DNA from: Candidatus Shapirobacteria bacterium
GTDB lineage: Bacteria; Patescibacteriota; Microgenomatia; UBA12405
Length of the DNA stretch: 64,000 nucleotides
Assembly (NCBI GenBank): GCA_041661765.1
Contig: JBAZTV010000001.1
Span: 135,755 to 199,754, forward strand
Reading direction: 5' to 3'
Part shown: positions 2,997 through 60,887 of the stretch, piece by piece
Numbering within the stretch: the first letter of the stretch is position 1
Layout of the letters: each line of letters opens with the position of its first letter
Program-made: the position numbers and the translations under genes
Notes under the pieces: generated by a model
The model's database searches: none
Told to the model about the DNA's origin: nothing
What the model saw: only the letters and a program-made list of their open reading frames with translations

Positions 2997-3414
2997 GAAA
3001 ATATTATAACAACCTTATTCTAAAATAATTTACATATCAATACTATGAAATCTGAACGAAGCTTATGGTTTTAGTATTAATATATCTTTATTATTCCAAA
3101 TCATTGCTGTCCTTTTTGTAATCTTTTGTAGCTAAATGAGAAAATAAGACACTTTTAAAAAAGGGTTTCTTAAAATTATTTATATTATTTAGACCAACTT
3201 AAGTATTTAAATTTCGGCTTTTTTTCAAAAAAATAGGGTTTTTGTTGTAAAAAATGTCAAATGTGATAAACTATAGGCTGTTTTCGTACTTTAACAAATA
3301 ATTGTTGTTTTAGTTTGTGGCTGATGGCTTAGTGAGTACAAATTTTGTGCTTAGTAAGCCATTAGTCATAAAAGACTTTTTAATGGTAATTTTTTTGAAA
3401 AGAGGTTTATTAAA

Positions 3415-4539
3415 ATGAACGAAACCCTGAAAACCAAACTTGTCGAACTCGGACTAAATGACGATCAAATCTCAAAACTCGAATCCGAAGGTGCAAAAAC
3501 CGAAGCCAATATGATCGGTCTTTCACCAGAAGAAATCAGGACTATGTGTGGGTGCGGGTTTATTTTGGCCAAAGAAATCGCCAAAGCCTTCATTCCGACA
3601 CCACCCGAAAAAGGATCCGAATCAATCGCAGTTTTATCAGCCGGGCAGCCTTCAATGGATGTTTTACCTCAAGTACCTGACGATGTTTCTTTCCTGAACA
3701 TGCTTAAAGTTGGTGGTGAACTTAAGGTTGGTGAAACTGAAGTTATCGCTGCCATCAGAGCATCTCTGGCAGACAAAAGCGGGCTTTACGAACTTCCAAA
3801 AATTTTAGCTAACCTTATGGAAAAATTCGCCGAAGAACAGGAAGTTCCATGCAGTAACGACTTTTACTCTTTACAGAAACTTCTAATAAGAAGAAACTAC
3901 GCCGAAATTTTTTCTGCTCTCGAAATCGACAGTGCTAGTGTTACTCAGCCCAAAAAAGATGCACTACTCAAAAAACTTCGGATCAATCTTTGGCCGGCGC
4001 TTTTAGGTTTTCATCAGCAAATCATAGGGTGGTTCTCAACTTATCAACAAACAGCTGCTAATCCGGCGGCAATGATGGGTATGTTTTCTATGCTTGCATC
4101 CGGCAATGGTAGTGCGGCTTCCAGTCTGATTCAGGCTCCTGACACCAACACCTTGCGTGATGCAGCTGAAAGCGTTATTGATCAAATCAATCGCGTTTTT
4201 GCCGGCACCGGTATTGTTATTTCTAGAGCTTTGGCTCTCGATGCTAACAATATTAAAACCGTGCTCGAAAATCCGTCATTGCCGGGACAGATTGGTGCTA
4301 GTAATCATGATCAGATGATTAAAATGCTTAGTGTTAACGTTTCAGCTGATTATGTCCGTCTTGAACGAAATATCACTCGTTACGCCTTGGCCATTATGGA
4401 GTTTCCGAAAGTGACCGCCGGACAATCAGAACTGAGTTATCTTACCGCAATGTTCCAACTTGGAAATGCCATTCCTTGGGACAAACTCGACTCGAAGGAG
4501 GTCGTAGCCGGTACAGGCTCTACCTTTCGAACCCAATGA
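3415..4539 (+). CDS. Hypothetical protein, cassette gene A (374 aa), no recognisable domain
   Basis: Long ORF with start ATG preceded by purine-rich stretch; visibly higher G+C than surroundings; first gene of + strand cassette 3415-8685. Confidence 0.5.
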   Translation: MNETLKTKLVELGLNDDQISKLESEGAKTEANMIGLSPEEIRTMCGCGFILAKEIAKAFIPTPPEKGSESIAVLSAGQPSMDVLPQVPDDVSFLNMLKVGGELKVGETEVIAAIRASLADKSGLYELPKILANLMEKFAEEQEVPCSNDFYSLQKLLIRRNYAEIFSALEIDSASVTQPKKDALLKKLRINLWPALLGFHQQIIGWFSTYQQTAANPAAMMGMFSMLASGNGSAASSLIQAPDTNTLRDAAESVIDQINRVFAGTGIVISRALALDANNIKTVLENPSLPGQIGASNHDQMIKMLSVNVSADYVRLERNITRYALAIMEFPKVTAGQSELSYLTAMFQLGNAIPWDKLDSKEVVAGTGSTFRTQ

Positions 4540-4600
4540 GTTCATCAAAAAATACTCTGAGATTGTCAACGGCAAAGACCATGCTGCCATCGCCGATTGG

Positions 4601-4897
4601 TTGATTAACAATGCCAAAAGCATAGACAAAACTATTTTCGATTCTAATTATTGGGATTTTTTGGAAGTTCTCGATGTTTTAACACTTCGTGTTTTTTCAC
4701 CTTCTGGAGTATTCATTTCTTTAAACAAAGAAAAATATACCTCAATTATCAACAATTCTCAACTACTCGCACTTAGCGAATGTCTTTTTAAAAATGATCG
4801 CGATTTCATTTCCAATCTTCCTTTAGAATTAAAACCATATTTAGCCCAATTAGAAGTCCTCATGGATTTGGCCTACAAAACTAAGATCAGGAGGTAG
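4601..4897 (+). CDS. Hypothetical small protein, cassette gene B (98 aa; TTG start in track, frame open upstream to 4508)
   Basis: ORF track; reading frame is open from 4508, overlapping end of gene A in +1 frame; possible alternative start or frameshift. Confidence 0.35.
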   Translation: MINNAKSIDKTIFDSNYWDFLEVLDVLTLRVFSPSGVFISLNKEKYTSIINNSQLLALSECLFKNDRDFISNLPLELKPYLAQLEVLMDLAYKTKIRR

Positions 4898-4961
4898 TAA
4901 ACAACAATTATTTCTGGGGTAGGACCTTTTCTAATATTTTTTAGAAAAAAAACTGCCCCAA

Positions 4962-5012
4962 TCCCTCTATCGATGTGTATCGATACCGATGAGTCCAAAA
5001 GGACGAAAGGAA
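4962..5012 (+). ncRNA. Hammerhead ribozyme-like motif, type III topology, variant core CCGAUGA (U4->C) and short stem III
   Basis: UCCCUC|UAUCGA-UGUGUA-UCGAUA-CCGAUGA-GUCC-AAAA-GGAC-GAAA-GGA: stem I hairpin, stem II GUCC/GGAC with AAAA loop, GAAA, 3-bp stem III; paralogous to the perfect copy at 7222-7273 with compensatory changes in stem I. Confidence 0.55.
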
Positions 5013-5066
5013 AAGTACTTTAAAAATAAGGAATGTTTCGTCATTTTTTGAAAGGAGTGATAATAA

Positions 5067-6023
5067 TTGGATCTTATTAAACTAATTTTAGCTCTCGCGC
5101 CACTAATACCTCGGGAAAATACTTCATCTTCATTAATCAAAATGACAGAGTTTGATGGGTTAAACGGAAAATACATTATTTTTGGTTTAAAATCTGCCAG
5201 CATTTCTAGTGGTGCTCCGATTGCCAAAACCAGTAACAGTAAATTGTACGTTACCCAGCTTCCTTCCGGTCAATTTGGATTTATGAAAATTGCTCTTGAA
5301 ACCTACGAAAATGACTCTATTGTCAGAGAATCCAATATTCTCAGGGAATTACAGTTGATTGCTCGTGAGATCGATAATGATTGTCAAAATAAAGGTTTAG
5401 GGAAACCAAACTATGGCGCCTTTTTCCCAAAAGTTTTAGAGACTTTTGATGCTGGTCCTAAAAAGGCTATGTTTTTAGGATTTGATGAAAACATCGAATC
5501 TTATCAACAATTTTCTCCCTTATCTTCATTAACAGGCGATCAGCGAATCGATCTTCAAACTGGTCATTGGATTTTAGGCAAGCTTCTTAAAATTCTTGCC
5601 TTTATTCACAGTTATGGTTATTCTCTTAAGTTAATTAATTCCAGTAATATTCTCCTCGAAACCAATCTTCACGGCGTTTTTATCCTCGATTTTTCTGCTG
5701 CTCAAAAAAATATTGATTCATTAGTTATGTCCCAAGAAATTTCAAATGCTGCCAAAATAGTTTGGTATGCAACTGGTGGAACCAACTCTGAATCTTCACC
5801 TCATGATCAAGACATTATGTCTCTCGAACATCACCATATCTATTTATCCTTTCTTTCCAAATTAATTGAAGGGACAAATTATACTACTGGTACAGTTATT
5901 GATAAATTATATGAACTTTCAGATGGCATTTGGCCAAAAGTTCAAAAGGAGGATGGTACCCCAGGTTTAAAACGACAATTTCATAAATTTTGCACCTATC
6001 CAAAAATAATCATTAAGGAGTGA
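5067..6023 (+). CDS. Eukaryote-like protein kinase fold protein, probable pseudokinase (HRD Asp replaced), cassette gene C
   Basis: 318 aa; TTG start 10 nt after AGGAG; motifs FMKIAL (beta3 Lys), RESNILRELQ (alphaC Glu), HSYGYSLKLINSSNILL (catalytic loop with Asn retained, Asp->Leu), ILDFSAA (DFG-like). Confidence 0.6.
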   Translation: MDLIKLILALAPLIPRENTSSSLIKMTEFDGLNGKYIIFGLKSASISSGAPIAKTSNSKLYVTQLPSGQFGFMKIALETYENDSIVRESNILRELQLIAREIDNDCQNKGLGKPNYGAFFPKVLETFDAGPKKAMFLGFDENIESYQQFSPLSSLTGDQRIDLQTGHWILGKLLKILAFIHSYGYSLKLINSSNILLETNLHGVFILDFSAAQKNIDSLVMSQEISNAAKIVWYATGGTNSESSPHDQDIMSLEHHHIYLSFLSKLIEGTNYTTGTVIDKLYELSDGIWPKVQKEDGTPGLKRQFHKFCTYPKIIIKE

Positions 6024-6030
6024 TGTTCAA

Positions 6031-7158
6031 ATGGTGGAAAAAAGACACACAGAAACTTTCAGTAGCAGTCACTATGAAAAAACCGTCAGTGAAATGCGCA
6101 CCCGCGGAGAGAAAGTCCACGATGCTGGCCAAAAAGTTTATCGCGAAACTGGCAAACTCGACCCCATGGTCGATATCAAAGGCAAAACTCGCGAATCCCG
6201 AAATGCTTTTATCGACAACGGTAATAACACCTGTCTTTTAACCAAAGGTATAAAAATGCCAGTCGTTTCTTGCGGTGATGGCACTGGTTCGATGGGTGAA
6301 AATGTTGGTAAAGTCTTTTTTGGAATGAAAAAACTTTTTGATATGCTTTCTCCGTTTCAATTGAGATATCAAATTGATCTCTCTGTCGCCGTAGTTCAAG
6401 ATGTTCAGGACAAACATCCTGTTTTTCAAATGGCTCAGTTCGAATCCAGCAATCTTGCTGCCGAGCATGTTACTAAATTAATCCCCGACAAAGATGGTGG
6501 TGATTCAGATGAAGACTATGATCTCGGTCTCTGCTATATCAATGACAGAGTAAATATTGATATTAATCAATACTGTTTGAAAGGCTATTTGTTTATTATT
6601 GCTGATGCCTGTGGTCGCGGTCGCGTTCTTGCTTCTGATGTCAAAAACCATCTAGGATATGAGATTCAATCAAGATCCATTTACACAAAAAAAATCTGTC
6701 AAGAACTTCTCAAAAAATGGCATGTCTTTTTTATCCAGATCAATAGTAGTTATCCAACTTCTTCTTGGTGGTCCGACCTACTTGGTGACAATCGAGTTAT
6801 TTTTGGTTGTGACGCTGATTATCTAGCCGAACTTCAGGCTGGATTAATGTATATCACCGAAACAGAAGAACCTCTTGAAACTAGTTTTATTGCCTTTCTT
6901 CAGGCTTCTGGTAACAATAAAATTTCCGATTACGATGCCAAAAAAATTTGGCAGATAATTCAGCCGGCCAAACCGCTTTTTGGCGCTCAGGCCAAACTCG
7001 ACGTCTTTAATAATATCCCCAAACCTGGTGATATTTTTAGTCACTATCGCAACCCCTGGCCCATTGGTCACGCCCGCGAAAGCGAAAATCCTACTACTAA
7101 TAGCGTCGTTACTACTCCATCTATCGATTCAAACGAAGTTGATTGGACTAAATTCTAA
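6031..7158 (+). CDS. von Willebrand factor A (vWA) domain protein with MIDAS motif, cassette gene D
   Basis: 375 aa; VVSCGDGTGSMGENVGKVFF = DxSGSM MIDAS start of vWA fold; later FIIADACG (ITDG-like). Confidence 0.65.
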   Translation: MVEKRHTETFSSSHYEKTVSEMRTRGEKVHDAGQKVYRETGKLDPMVDIKGKTRESRNAFIDNGNNTCLLTKGIKMPVVSCGDGTGSMGENVGKVFFGMKKLFDMLSPFQLRYQIDLSVAVVQDVQDKHPVFQMAQFESSNLAAEHVTKLIPDKDGGDSDEDYDLGLCYINDRVNIDINQYCLKGYLFIIADACGRGRVLASDVKNHLGYEIQSRSIYTKKICQELLKKWHVFFIQINSSYPTSSWWSDLLGDNRVIFGCDADYLAELQAGLMYITETEEPLETSFIAFLQASGNNKISDYDAKKIWQIIQPAKPLFGAQAKLDVFNNIPKPGDIFSHYRNPWPIGHARESENPTTNSVVTTPSIDSNEVDWTKF

Positions 7159-7221
7159 CGCAAACATTCTTTACAAAAGTCAGGACAGGTTGCTTTTGGC
7201 AACAAAACAATCTGTCCTACA

Positions 7222-7273
7222 TCCCTCTTCTGATGTGTATCAGAACTGATGAGTCCAAAAGGACGAAAGGGAA
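7222..7273 (+). ncRNA. Type III hammerhead ribozyme (canonical core)
   Basis: UCCCUC|UUCUGA-UGUGUA-UCAGAA-CUGAUGA-GUCC-AAAA-GGAC-GAAA-GGGA: closed stem I hairpin, CUGAUGA, stem II 4 bp + AAAA loop, GAAA, stem III UCCCU/AGGGA, predicted cleavage after C7227. Confidence 0.8.
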
Positions 7274-7275
7274 AT

Positions 7276-8685
7276 ATGAAAGAAATAATTTCAATTTTTG
7301 GCACTGGTATTGGTGAAGAAGTCAAGGGTGTCACCACTCAAAAATGTGTTCAAGAAACCAATGCTCACACCGTCATTCGATCTGGCGGTTTTCAATCGGG
7401 TCACCATATCGTCGATAATAACGGTGAAACTTTTTCTTTCAGTCATTTCAGTTGTGGTACTTTTGATGGGGCTCAAACCTATTTAAAAAATATGGTTTTT
7501 AATCCAGTCGATTTATTTGAAGAAGCAATCATGCTCGAAGAAAAAGGAATTGAAAATATTTTTGACAAAATAATTATTGATGAAAACTGTATTAGCACCA
7601 CTCCTTATCATCAAGCCATCAGTCGTCTTCGCGAAGTTTTACTCGGTGACAATAAAAAGGGAACTGTTGGCAAAGGTGTTGGTGATGCTATAAAAGATTC
7701 TTCAGACCCAAATCTAACTCTTCGGGCTGCTGATTTTTTTCAAAATTTTGACTTTCTTCAAAACAAAATTAAAAATATTCAGCAACATAAACTTTATCAA
7801 TCCCAAAAACTTTTAGAAAATAAAAATCCATCTGAAATCTCTGATCGTGCCCTTTTTGAATTTTCCATCATTAAGGATAAAAATCTTATCAAGAAAACCG
7901 TTATTGCTTGTCAATCTTTATCAAAATTAGTTCGTATCACTGACCAAATTTTTTTTCAAGAACTTTTAAATAAAAATGGCACTATTGTTTGCGAACCATC
8001 ACACGGTGCACTTCTCCATCCAGATTTTGGATTTGTTCCCCATGTCACCCAAGTCGATCCTACTGGTCAAGACCTTTTAGAATCCATCAAAAATCAAAAC
8101 TATGACGGTAAGATAGTTCGTCTTGGTGTCAGTCGTTGTTATATTACTCGTCATGGTGCCGGCCCTCTTGTTTCTTTCAATCAAGAAATGACCGATTCCA
8201 TAATTGAAAGTTCGGATAATAACGGTGCCAATGAATGGCTCGGCCCTTTTAGAAATGGAAATTTTGATTTAGTTGCCATGAAGTATGCACTCAATTTTAG
8301 CGGATCAATCAGTGGTCTTGGAATTAGTTATTTAGATATTTTAAATCAAAACCAAAATTGGCAAGTTTGCGAAAGTTACCAATATTTAGGAGATAAAAAC
8401 AACCTCCAAGATTTTTTTGAAATTGAAGACAATAAAATTATCGCCATAAAAATTTACAAAGGTGTAAATAAATCAGATCAAATAAATCATCAAGTTCAAC
8501 TCACCAACTTATTAAAAAATTGTCACCCAATTCTCACCACTCTCAAATCTACGGATAATAAAAATCTCGAAGAAATTTTTATAAATTATGTTGAACAAAA
8601 ATTAGAAATTCCTGTTGTACTTGTTGGTTACGGCCCTAAATCTTCCGATCGAAAATTCAGAATAAATTTATCTGATCTCGGGTAA
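7276..8685 (+). CDS. Divergent adenylosuccinate synthetase family protein (PurA/PurZ-like), cassette gene E
   Basis: Track ORF 7249..8685, start re-set to ATG 7276 (AAGGGA 7 nt upstream; 7249 start lies inside ribozyme). Colinear similarity to PurA: GTGIGEEVKG~GxQWGDEGKGK, HTVIRSGGFQSGHHIV~VVRYQGGHNAGHTLV, NGETFSFSHFSCG~NGEKxVLHLIPSG, KKGTVGKGVGDA~IGTTGRGIGPA, GALLHPDFGFVPHVT~GAQGTLLDIDHGTYPYVT, ITRHGAGP~STRVGAGP; several catalytic residues substituted. Confidence 0.65.
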   Translation: MKEIISIFGTGIGEEVKGVTTQKCVQETNAHTVIRSGGFQSGHHIVDNNGETFSFSHFSCGTFDGAQTYLKNMVFNPVDLFEEAIMLEEKGIENIFDKIIIDENCISTTPYHQAISRLREVLLGDNKKGTVGKGVGDAIKDSSDPNLTLRAADFFQNFDFLQNKIKNIQQHKLYQSQKLLENKNPSEISDRALFEFSIIKDKNLIKKTVIACQSLSKLVRITDQIFFQELLNKNGTIVCEPSHGALLHPDFGFVPHVTQVDPTGQDLLESIKNQNYDGKIVRLGVSRCYITRHGAGPLVSFNQEMTDSIIESSDNNGANEWLGPFRNGNFDLVAMKYALNFSGSISGLGISYLDILNQNQNWQVCESYQYLGDKNNLQDFFEIEDNKIIAIKIYKGVNKSDQINHQVQLTNLLKNCHPILTTLKSTDNKNLEEIFINYVEQKLEIPVVLVGYGPKSSDRKFRINLSDLG

Positions 8686-10377
8686 AAAAACTCGGCTTAA
8701 AAAAAGTTGTGTCGCTATCCGTCTAAACTCTGGTTCCCAAAAATCACTTTGCCAATCGATCAAATCTGAATGGACTGTGCCTTTTGATTTTTTAGATGGA
8801 TAAAAATAACGATAACCTTTATGCATAAATCTGTTTTGGATTATATCCATCTCCAATTTAAGTAAGAAAACAGTTATAATCGTTTTCTTTTGTTTCCCAA
8901 ATCTTTCCAAATTAAGATATTTTTTTGTTATATCTTGGCTAATCTTTTTAAATTCATTATTGGAGCTAATCCAAATTCCATTCCAAAAAATATGTATTTC
9001 TTTTACTCCAATAATTTTTCCATTTTGTTCTGGATTTTTAAATCCAAATTTTTCATCTTTTTTATCAATCCAATATTCCAAAATTTTTTCCACAGTTTTT
9101 AATGCTGGAATTTTTTGATGAAGTCGTTCTAAAATTTCTTCTCTTCTTTCAAAAGTAGTTTCTGGTCTAAAAAATATTGCCGCGTCTATATCTGCTTCCA
9201 CACCAGCATATCCTTTAACTCTTGATCCAAAAACTAAAAATGTTGGATAAATATATTTCATTAATTCACCATCTTCTTTAATTTTTATTACTGCTTCTCT
9301 AAAAATTTCAAAATCTTTTTTTACCATTTCTTTAGTTTTTATTGCCATCAGTTGATTAAATTCGGGCAATTTTGTTTTAAATTTTTCCAAAACTTCATCA
9401 GAAATAATACCTAAATTTTTCCAATGGCTTAATCCAGATTTAATATCATTTTCAAAAATATTTTTATTTTTAATCCAACAATCATAAACTAAAGGCAAAT
9501 ATTTTTCTATTAAATTAATCTTTTCTCCAGCCTTAAAAATACCCACAATTTCAGCAATCTCATTAATTTCACTAAATTCAATTTCACCATCAATTATTTT
9601 TTGACAAATTACTTCTGATTTTTTTTCAGTTTCTTTTTCTTTTTTAACTTGGTTTTCCCATCTAATTCTCGCTCGGCTAATAATAAAACTTTTATCAATT
9701 TTTGGCTTTTGTAAATCAAATAATTTATCAACCAATTTTTCATCAAAATCAAAATTTACTATTTTTTTATCAGCCGCAACAATCAATCCTTCAGTCAAAT
9801 TTATTTTCAAATTTTCGTCATCACAAACATTAACTATTTTTTTTATTTCCTCGTAATCAATTATCTTTTTTTCTAAAATATCTGACACCAAATGAGCCAC
9901 TTTTCTAACTGGAACTGGTTCTCCCAACCCTGCTTCTAAAATATCACCATCAACAAAATCAGCTCGCCAATCTTCCTCAAACAATAATCTAATCCATGAT
10001 TTTTTATAAACTTCAGAAAATTTTTTCCTTGATTTTCTTAAAATTTCACCATTAATTTCTTTTTCCATATTAGGCAAGAGTTGTGAAGGAAGATAAAGGA
10101 TAATTCGGCTATTATTTTCAACATCTTCTTCAATAAATTTTCCTAATCCATCATAAATATCAATTAAATCTTCATTACCAACCAAATCTTTTTCATACGC
10201 TTCATCAAAATCCATATTTACGTCAGGAATTTTATTAAAAATATTTTTTAACTTTTTATACAAATCCCTTCGATCTTTTCCTTCTTCACTTAAAAAAATA
10301 TCTACACCAATCGGGCCAGATATCTCAATTTCATTAAAATTTAGTCTATCTTTTATCTCTACTGTGGACACTACCAA
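8668..10377 (-). CDS. Nucleotidyltransferase (Pol-beta superfamily) domain protein, 569 aa
   Basis: GSRVKGYAGVEADIDAAIFF = GS..G...D.D NTase motif in C-terminal half; remainder unknown. Confidence 0.55.
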   Translation of the reverse strand: MVVSTVEIKDRLNFNEIEISGPIGVDIFLSEEGKDRRDLYKKLKNIFNKIPDVNMDFDEAYEKDLVGNEDLIDIYDGLGKFIEEDVENNSRIILYLPSQLLPNMEKEINGEILRKSRKKFSEVYKKSWIRLLFEEDWRADFVDGDILEAGLGEPVPVRKVAHLVSDILEKKIIDYEEIKKIVNVCDDENLKINLTEGLIVAADKKIVNFDFDEKLVDKLFDLQKPKIDKSFIISRARIRWENQVKKEKETEKKSEVICQKIIDGEIEFSEINEIAEIVGIFKAGEKINLIEKYLPLVYDCWIKNKNIFENDIKSGLSHWKNLGIISDEVLEKFKTKLPEFNQLMAIKTKEMVKKDFEIFREAVIKIKEDGELMKYIYPTFLVFGSRVKGYAGVEADIDAAIFFRPETTFERREEILERLHQKIPALKTVEKILEYWIDKKDEKFGFKNPEQNGKIIGVKEIHIFWNGIWISSNNEFKKISQDITKKYLNLERFGKQKKTIITVFLLKLEMDIIQNRFMHKGYRYFYPSKKSKGTVHSDLIDWQSDFWEPEFRRIATQLFLSRVFLPEIR

Positions 10378-59207: not shown

Positions 59208-59393
59208 TGCAAATTTCAATCTTGTGTAATATAATAACCTCACTGCCTGAAACAAGGCAGAATTGTTCTTTAAAATTAAGTTCACAATTTGTTTAGAGCC
59301 AGAAGCTGTTAGTACCAGAAAGATTTTCAAAAAAAATTTTTGATTGATTATTTAAATCAATTGATTTCGAATTTATTCGAAATGTTAGTACTA

Positions 59394-60887
<1,494 letters not shown>

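Follow-up and report, generated by a model that had tools for sequence, protein, structure and literature searches.

Two type III hammerhead elements at the module boundaries of a conserved five-gene cassette in a Candidatus Shapirobacteria genome and their probable role in dividing its transcript

Intercistronic sites for RNase III or RNase E, such as those of the phage T7 early mRNAs, leave stabilizing hairpins at the 3' ends of the RNAs. Ribozymes in a 5' untranslated region (UTR), as in RiboJ-type insulators and glmS, leave the downstream mRNA with a structured, well-defined 5' terminus that carries a 5'-OH, and alter its stability or the context of the ribosome-binding site (RBS); in RiboJ-type insulators, the sTRSV hammerhead stands between promoter and RBS, with an added downstream hairpin that exposes the RBS. 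Type III hammerheads were reportedly described from plant satellite RNAs and viroids, as well as from bacteria and phages, by De la Pena and Garcia-Robles in 2010 and by Perreault et al. and Jimenez et al. in 2011. Thousands of bacterial hammerheads are now known, and their role, usually tied to phages, is still called an open question (PMC6155905). Intergenic hammerheads of types I and III and arrays of them that flank genes have already been reported from bacteria (PMC3088659; PMC6155905). Among these are the clustered prophage hammerheads of Clostridium scindens, Azorhizobium caulinodans and Agrobacterium tumefaciens (ardA) (Perreault et al. 2011, PMC3088659), in which several co-oriented intergenic elements delimit single genes or short blocks, the flanked genes are not constant, and processing of the transcript into gene-length mRNAs was proposed; both in vitro and in E. 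coli, such clusters were shown to cleave polycistronic prophage RNAs (PMC3088659). Here we analyzed a stretch of 64,000 nucleotides (the window) from the metagenome-assembled genome of an uncultured Candidatus Shapirobacteria bacterium (GenBank assembly GCA_041661765.1, contig JBAZTV010000001.1, positions 135,755 to 199,754 of the forward strand), in which two type III hammerhead elements, hammerheads A and B, lie within a cassette of five genes, g1 to g5.

Both elements are on the plus strand, 2,260 nt apart, in intergenic gaps of the co-oriented block from 3415 to 8685 (Table 1), which agrees with their placement in a first-pass annotation of the window made from its letters. We consider it likely that they are two cis-acting ribozymes that cut the transcript of a conserved operon into g1-g2, g3-g4 and g5, each to be stabilized and translated on its own, and that copy A has become attenuated in this genome. 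As in the prophage arrays, co-oriented intergenic hammerheads would divide a transcript into short blocks; unlike in those arrays, there are no integrase or phage genes here, the flanked genes are conserved and syntenic across several lineages of the Candidate Phyla Radiation (CPR), and all copies are of type III, each with a hairpin abutting its 5' side. The proposed cut resembles that at RNase III and RNase E sites in that it would be intercistronic and the upstream product would end in a protective stem-loop, but it would be made by the RNA itself and would require no protein nuclease. As with RiboJ and glmS, a ribozyme in the 5' UTR is predicted to leave a 5'-OH and a structured 5' end on the downstream mRNA; unlike in RiboJ, the candidate RBS is the 3' strand of stem III itself and the hairpin lies upstream, and unlike in glmS, there is no ligand control.

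Hammerhead B showed the complete layout of the class. In its stem III, UCCCU (7222 to 7226) pairs with AGGGA (A7268 to A7272), and C7227 takes position C17. Stem I (7228 to 7245) pairs UUCUGA with UCAGAA around UGUGUA, within which a seventh pair, U-A, leaves a GUGU tetraloop; the core CUGAUGA (7246 to 7252), stem II (GUCC-AAAA-GGAC, 7253 to 7264) and GAA (7265 to 7267) follow. All core positions are canonical (C3, U4, G5, A6, N7, G8 and A9; G12, A13 and A14; A15.1-U16.1; H17 not G). Stems I and II are closed by loops and stem III is open, which is the three-helix junction of type III, and by standard hammerhead numbering cleavage is predicted between C7227 and U7228. The stems, core and predicted cleavage after C7227 match the first-pass description exactly, apart from the end of the element, which had been drawn at 7273 and which we place at 7272, the A of GAAA being the first stem III pair (15.1). 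Folded alone, hammerhead B took the hammerhead junction as its minimum free energy (MFE) structure (-16.1 kcal/mol), and in 148 nt of context the MFE fold was again the three-way junction (z = -3.56, equaled by 0 of 200 shuffles). Judged from its sequence, hammerhead B is a type III hammerhead in every respect but the Rfam cut-off, and it looks fully functional.

RF00008 (Hammerhead_3) was the best Rfam family at both sites when a permissive threshold was used. The two elements resemble this family in the open stem III, the closed stems I and II, the CUGAUGA...GAAA core, A15.1-U16.1 and C17, as well as in the short stem II (GUCC/GGAC) with its A-rich tetraloop and in the conserved stem I loop. 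They differ from its consensus in a loop 1 that is longer by 5 nt and a loop 2 that is shorter by 4 nt, and copy A differs in its U4C core as well. Because of the two loop lengths, the scores of 35.2 bits at site B (E = 3e-5 in 2.6 kb and 7.6e-4 over the whole window) and 22.7 bits at site A fell below the gathering threshold of 48.5 bits. An Rfam scan of the window at the gathering threshold reported no ribozyme, and a permissive scan of the whole window returned RF00008 at site B only and no twister, pistol, hatchet or type I or type II hammerhead. A score below gathering had been proposed in the first pass as a refutation of the assignment; this is formally what we obtained, yet the test is uninformative and carries no weight, because the cut-off misses almost the whole subfamily. 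Across 18 loci (among L121 to L180) with at least 26 type III hammerheads, only 2 RF00008 hits reached 48.5 bits. The RF00008 gathering threshold is not diagnostic for this subfamily, of which it misses more than 90%.

Membership was assessed with a model built from outside the window. We searched public collections with the pattern CTGATGAGTCCNNNNGGACGAAA, which matched viral contigs and genome contigs, more than 120 of each (both lower bounds). A full type III scaffold (7-bp stem I, 4-nt loop, H17 mostly C and stem III of 4 to 8 bp) was present in 118 of the 129 complete genome matches and in 0.1% of shuffled flanks. None of the cassette proteins was found by tblastn in 330 pattern-derived loci, so these loci represent independent contexts. 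In an alignment of 139 independent phage and CPR type III hammerheads that excluded the window, 94% of cells were paired, compared with about 40% with slid partners, 11 of 17 pairs showed double changes, and the covariation score was 0.725, compared with 0.18 when slid. The covariance model from these sequences (R1) scored hammerhead B at 72.3 bits (E = 7e-18) and hammerhead A at 61.6 bits (E = 8e-15). With filters off, R1 found no further copy in the whole 64 kb (next best, 11.6 bits), nor did a pattern search of the window with three mismatches. The 23-nt core shared by the two elements occurs twice in the window, with 0 occurrences expected from shuffles. Across the family, conservation reached at least 90% at the U before GUGU in the stem I loop and in the A-rich loop 2, and neither window copy departs from these consensus loops; this conservation suggests a tertiary contact between loop 1 and loop 2, of the kind that type III hammerheads require for activity at physiological Mg2+. 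Taken at the sequence level, these results support both elements as type III hammerheads. Among the IMG/VR "viral contigs" that matched the core, L051 (366 nt), L057 (457 nt) and L070 (359 nt) have the size of viroid-like satellite RNAs.

Next, we looked at the same positions in related genomes. Homologues of g5 with 34 to 85% identity gave eight further loci (L332 to L339). R1 found hammerheads at both positions in L332, L333, L334 and L335 (61 to 73 bits) and in L339, five genomes in which the PurA-like protein was 47 to 85% identical (tblastn), and one hammerhead with a long stem II in L336. The 11 syntenic copies had 94.7% of cells paired, compared with 30 to 50% when slid; 8 of 17 pairs changed on both sides, with compensatory changes in all three stems, among them a double change in stem II (GUCU/AGAC) in L333. 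The type III class given in the first pass is thus borne out by elements at the same intercistronic positions in relatives, with compensatory changes. Among the copies in the more distant orthologous loci, the one at 5943 to 5999 of L339 has U10.1·U11.1, which opens stem II, and A17, and stem II is extended by 22 to 33 nt in L336 (5921 to 5991) and L339 (4317 to 4388).

Two other explanations of the elements can be weighed with these alignments. They might act mainly as uncleaved RNA structures, such as protein-binding sites, folding insulators or translational operators that sequester a Shine-Dalgarno (SD) sequence, in which case the hammerhead core would be a vestige or a coincidence. The SD-like sequence of g5 is paired in stem III, and the hairpins and stems are stable structures, as such a role would have it. 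However, C3, U4, G5, A6, G8, A9, G12, A13, A14, A15.1-U16.1 and an H17 that is not G were kept in 10 of the 11 syntenic copies while the helices varied freely, and the 139 family members likewise combined an invariant core with variable helices. Since only catalysis explains invariant unpaired nucleotides, we regard a structural role alone as improbable. The copies might also be a dispersed repeat, a mobile element or a chance match without function in the operon, and they are 85% identical over 54 nt. Their similarity, however, ends exactly at the ribozyme borders, with unrelated hairpins and flanks; copies are kept at syntenic sites down to 47% protein identity (tblastn); and the E values of R1, with 0 expected in shuffles, speak against chance. 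A mobile repeat was rejected on synteny, on covariation and on the finding that only the 54-nt ribozyme is repeated, and we give this explanation almost no credence.

We then compared gene order across the loci. The order g1-g2, hammerhead, g3-g4, hammerhead, g5 was shared by the window, L332 and L335 (tblastn) and, by called genes, by L334, where tblastn missed g2 (98-aa open reading frame [ORF], 3019 to 3315). The modules were permuted in three loci (tblastn): in L333, the order was g3-g4, hammerhead, g5, a gene g6 in the opposite orientation, g1-g2, hammerhead; in L339, g3-g4, hammerhead, g1-g2, hammerhead, g5; and in L336, g4-g1, hammerhead, g5. Whatever the arrangement, a two-gene module was always followed by a hammerhead, and a hammerhead followed the g2 orthologue in all 5 related loci that keep g2, including L333 with its relocated module. 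Because the hammerhead after g2 in L333 faces only a convergent gene, the ribozyme behaves, as far as gene order indicates, as a 3'-terminal element of its module for which no downstream cistron is needed.

The same comparison bears on a further possibility, that the pair excises the 2.26-kb g3-g4 segment, which is then ligated into a circular RNA of the retrozyme or viroid-like kind. The g3-g4 segment does lie between co-oriented type III hammerheads whose stem III strands are nearly identical, and circular or spliced products were raised as a possibility by Perreault et al., who detected no circular products (PMC3088659). In this scheme the outer half-sites re-pair, but in the orthologues stem III pairing within a copy (8, 8, 4, 5 and 5 bp) was stronger than pairing across copies (5, 5, 3, 3 and 3 bp). 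Moreover, the arrangement is broken in L333, where 5 kb and an antisense gene separate the hammerheads, and in L336, which has only one, and the upstream copy of the window pair is the defective one. A retrozyme or circular RNA is thus not supported and appears very unlikely.

Table 1. Positions of the cassette genes, hairpins, hammerheads and candidate ribosome-binding site in the window, and loci of the U4C clade
Feature	Position or loci	Strand	Basis or remarks
g1, 374 aa, first gene of module g1-g2	3415..4539	+	ORF/called gene; orthologues 47-75% identity in L332-L336
g2, 98 aa, last gene of module g1-g2	4601..4897	+	ORF/called gene
Hairpin A, GGGGUAG...CUGCCCC, inner UUCUAA/UUAGAA helix	4915..4960	+	Folds; ends 1 nt before hammerhead A stem III
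Hammerhead A, type III scaffold, variant core, predicted cleavage after C4967	4962..5012	+	Sequence; RF00008 22.7 bits; R1 61.6 bits
g3, 318 aa, faint protein-kinase-like signals	5067..6023	+	Own SD AGGAG 8 nt before TTG start
g4, 375 aa, last gene of module g3-g4	6031..7158	+	phrog_2971
Hairpin B, AGGACAGGUUG...CAAUCUGUCCU	7182..7218	+	Folds; ends 3 nt before hammerhead B stem III
Hammerhead B, canonical type III	7222..7272	+	Sequence; fold; RF00008 35.2 bits; R1 72.3 bits
SD-like AGGGA (stem III 3' strand), 3-nt spacer, AUG 7276	7268..7278	+	Sequence; 16S 3' end; orthologues; folds
g5, PurA-like, 469 aa	7276..8685	+	Pfam PF00709 162 bits
U4C clade members	L260, L273, L275, L280, L281, L287, L288, L308, L311, L323		Common upstream context ...AAAAAAAUCUCCCUCCAUC

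Hairpins abutted the 5' sides of the hammerheads well beyond the window. The 5' product with hairpin B (7100 to 7227) folded with z = -4.97. At 13 of 13 orthologous hammerheads, a hairpin of -12 to -28 kcal/mol ended 0 to 4 nt before stem III, and the sequences of these hairpins were mutually unrelated. For about 220 type III hammerheads from phages, CPR genomes and metagenomes, the 50 nt upstream folded with a mean of -13.2 kcal/mol, compared with -10.4 kcal/mol for sequence 200 nt further up (P value = 2e-6) and -7.9 kcal/mol for shuffles (P value = 5e-29), and a strong hairpin abutted the ribozyme in 113 of 224 cases, compared with 67 of 224 controls. With respect to genes, 83 of the 89 genome hammerheads with enough flank were intergenic, and for 58 of the 74 with an assignable upstream neighbor, that neighbor was a co-oriented gene whose stop lay a median of 81 nt away; 36 stood between co-oriented genes, 15 faced a convergent gene, and 10 followed a divergent one. 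Many IMG/VR hammerheads share one conserved upstream hairpin, GGUGUCUUCAAAGACACC (L008, L012, L017, L026, L029, L031, L045, L046, L056, L062 and others), a similarity suggestive of related phages in which hairpin and ribozyme form a fixed unit.

At site B, the ribozyme also overlaps the start region of g5. In 6 of 7 orthologues, 3 to 6 nt separate the 3' strand of stem III (AGGGA, AGGAA, AGGAG or AGGUU) from the start codon. This strand is SD-like, which upholds the earlier suggestion that the ribozyme supplies the SD-like sequence of this gene; the 3' end of the organism's 16S rRNA, CACCUCCUUU, is a canonical anti-SD. AGGGA is paired in stem III of the uncleaved fold, and both AGGGA and AUG are unpaired in the predicted 3' product (7228 to 7315). 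Another AUG, at 7249 inside CUGAUGA, shares the frame of the conserved start at 7276 and precedes it by 27 nt. A gene-caller start at 7249 adds a spurious MSPKGRKGN extension (P0101, 478 aa), which hides the ribozyme. ORF calls for g5 often begin at the AUG of CUGAUGA or in loop 1; the called starts are at 6001 in L332, where it is an AUG in loop 1, and at 6001 in L335. Gene callers run ORFs into the ribozyme because the Rfam gathering threshold almost never reports the subfamily.

Stop codons lie only 17 to 23 nt from the hairpins, and promoter-like or intrinsic-terminator-like matches in the gaps were not above chance, so co-transcription of the cassette is the simplest assumption. In such a polycistronic transcript, hammerhead B would fold and cleave after C7227, by the site-specific, Mg2+-dependent self-cleavage of its class. 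The upstream product would be an mRNA that ends in hairpin B and a 9-nt tail, ACAUCCCUC>p, with a 2',3'-cyclic phosphate, and this hairpin end should shield it from 3' exonucleases. The g5 mRNA would start with a 5'-OH and the compact body of stems I and II, which supports the first-pass view that the ribozyme body would stay on the 5' end of the PurA-like mRNA. Before cleavage, stem III would lock the SD-like AGGGA; after cleavage, the 6-nt 5' strand would depart with the upstream fragment and leave the SD and AUG single-stranded. Cleavage at B would in this way both separate the cistrons and license translation of g5. In related genomes, hammerhead A would do likewise behind g2; the window copy is probably slow or inactive, which would leave g1-g4 largely as one RNA.

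Several observations weigh against this proposal. Besides the RF00008 scores below gathering, R1 found no hammerhead in L337 (42% identity) or L338 (34%), and because orthologues at 42% identity or less are without it, the ribozyme is dispensable for the cassette. In genomes, the enrichment of upstream hairpins is modest (-12.4 vs -11.2 kcal/mol), unlike in viral contigs, where it is large. The SD sequence in stem III is absent in L333, and few of the genome hammerheads have a start codon within 10 nt, which makes the arrangement specific to site B; the spacer between SD and AUG at g5 is short (3 nt). The remaining points concern hammerhead A. Its core is CCGAUGA (U4C at C4987) and so departs from the U4 of the catalytic core. 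In its MFE fold, stems I and II formed and stem III (3 bp and a mismatch) did not, either alone or in context. In a type III hammerhead, activity was low for every single mutant of the CUGA turn (PMC9901934), and of 43 bystander hammerheads, which were not selected by pattern, all were canonical and none (0 of 43) had a single core change.

The first-pass annotation had presented hammerhead A as identical to B apart from compensated changes in stem I. Stem II, the loops and the 5' flank AUCCCUC are indeed the same, and three pairs of stem I are altered on both sides between the copies, as it had noted; the core, with its U4C, is not the same, nor is the 3' strand of stem III, which is AGGAA rather than AGGGA and produces a C4963·A5011 mismatch at 16.4/15.4. 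A second assembly of this species shows the same U4C and the same stem III mismatch, which rules out sequencing error for either. All orthologues of hammerhead A have the canonical CUGAUGA, and it is on this basis that we class the window copy, from sequence comparison, as a hammerhead homologue by descent and not as a member of the consensus.

We judge it slightly better than an even chance that only hammerhead B works in this genome, with copy A a decaying relic and a single cut between g1-g4 and g5. Among the 11 syntenic copies, hammerhead A of the window is the sole one with U4C and the sole one with the 16.4/15.4 mismatch, and its fold without stem III, the low activity of CUGA-turn mutants and the lack of core variants among unselected hammerheads point the same way. 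On the other side, no defect affects stem I, stem II or either loop of hammerhead A, and a weak stem III is common in natural hammerheads (PMC3088659). Furthermore, 78 of 91 natural CCGAUGA variants retain the full type III scaffold, and a clade of 10 distinct type III sequences from metagenomes (Table 1) keeps CCGAUGA despite compensatory changes in stem I, which suggests that a U4C core can be maintained by selection. In view of these intact scaffolds and this clade, hammerhead A is probably attenuated in this genome rather than certainly dead, and the "two ribozymes" may be one and a half.

The setting of the cassette is chromosomal. Phage hallmark genes were absent among the 7 to 9 neighboring proteins (Pfam, PHROGs and NCBIfam), and tblastn of g4 and g5 against 50,697 phage records gave no match above 28% identity. 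Contigs on which the cassette is syntenic range from about 12 kb (L332) to about 340 kb and come from several CPR metagenome-assembled genomes (MAGs). A prophage setting was rejected on these three grounds, and the analogy to prophage-type arrays drawn in the first pass gives way to a syntenic chromosomal cluster of Microgenomates-type CPR bacteria without phage hallmark genes. The block is flanked by a divergent gene upstream and a convergent gene downstream, the latter encoding a Pol-beta-type nucleotidyltransferase (8668 to 10377). The protein encoded by g5 belongs to the adenylosuccinate synthetase superfamily but is divergent (NCBIfam PurA, 132 bits vs a cut-off of 402), and its assignment as the PurZ of Z-genomes was rejected (NCBIfam PurZ, 27 bits vs a cut-off of 300). 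A second PurA-family gene, about 28% identical to g5, lies just upstream of the cassette in L332 (663 to 1991), L334 (78 to 1424) and L335 (291 to 1637). For g1, no match was found in Pfam, PHROGs or NCBIfam; g1 to g4 gave nothing significant in PDB sequence and profile searches and no informative family match in Pfam, PHROGs or NCBIfam.

The CPR makes up roughly 5 to 10% of GTDB species. Among the genome matches listed (L121 to L200), 58 of 80 were MAGs of Patescibacteria/CPR (Saccharibacteria, Parcubacteria and Microgenomates lineages), a count that an order bias may affect, and the subfamily is apparently concentrated in CPR genomes. A literature search returned no paper linking hammerheads with Patescibacteria, CPR or Saccharibacteria, and in the literature searched, the CPR concentration, the abutting 5' hairpin, the persistence at module boundaries and the SD sequence in stem III appear to be undescribed. 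The locus offers a cleaner case for a hammerhead role, as a conserved chromosomal operon whose module boundaries keep the element through rearrangements. A tentative extension, which we hold to be possible but doubtful, is that hairpin and type III hammerhead modules are a widespread, phage-independent means of defining mRNA ends in Patescibacteria (CPR), in place of a terminator or RNase site, and that at some sites, such as g5, translation needs cleavage. If true, prokaryotic hammerheads would have a definite housekeeping function, and there would be a reason for their apparent concentration in the CPR, which is invisible to standard Rfam-based annotation. Some Saccharibacteria can now be grown in culture and manipulated genetically (PMC10633639), so the role of the hammerheads would be directly testable.

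Apart from the cassette, the window contains the 16S rRNA gene (59387 to 60887, 1,330 bits), in which about 38 nt are inserted close to the 5' end by comparison with the bacterial small-subunit model, and, by the Rfam scan, tRNAs.

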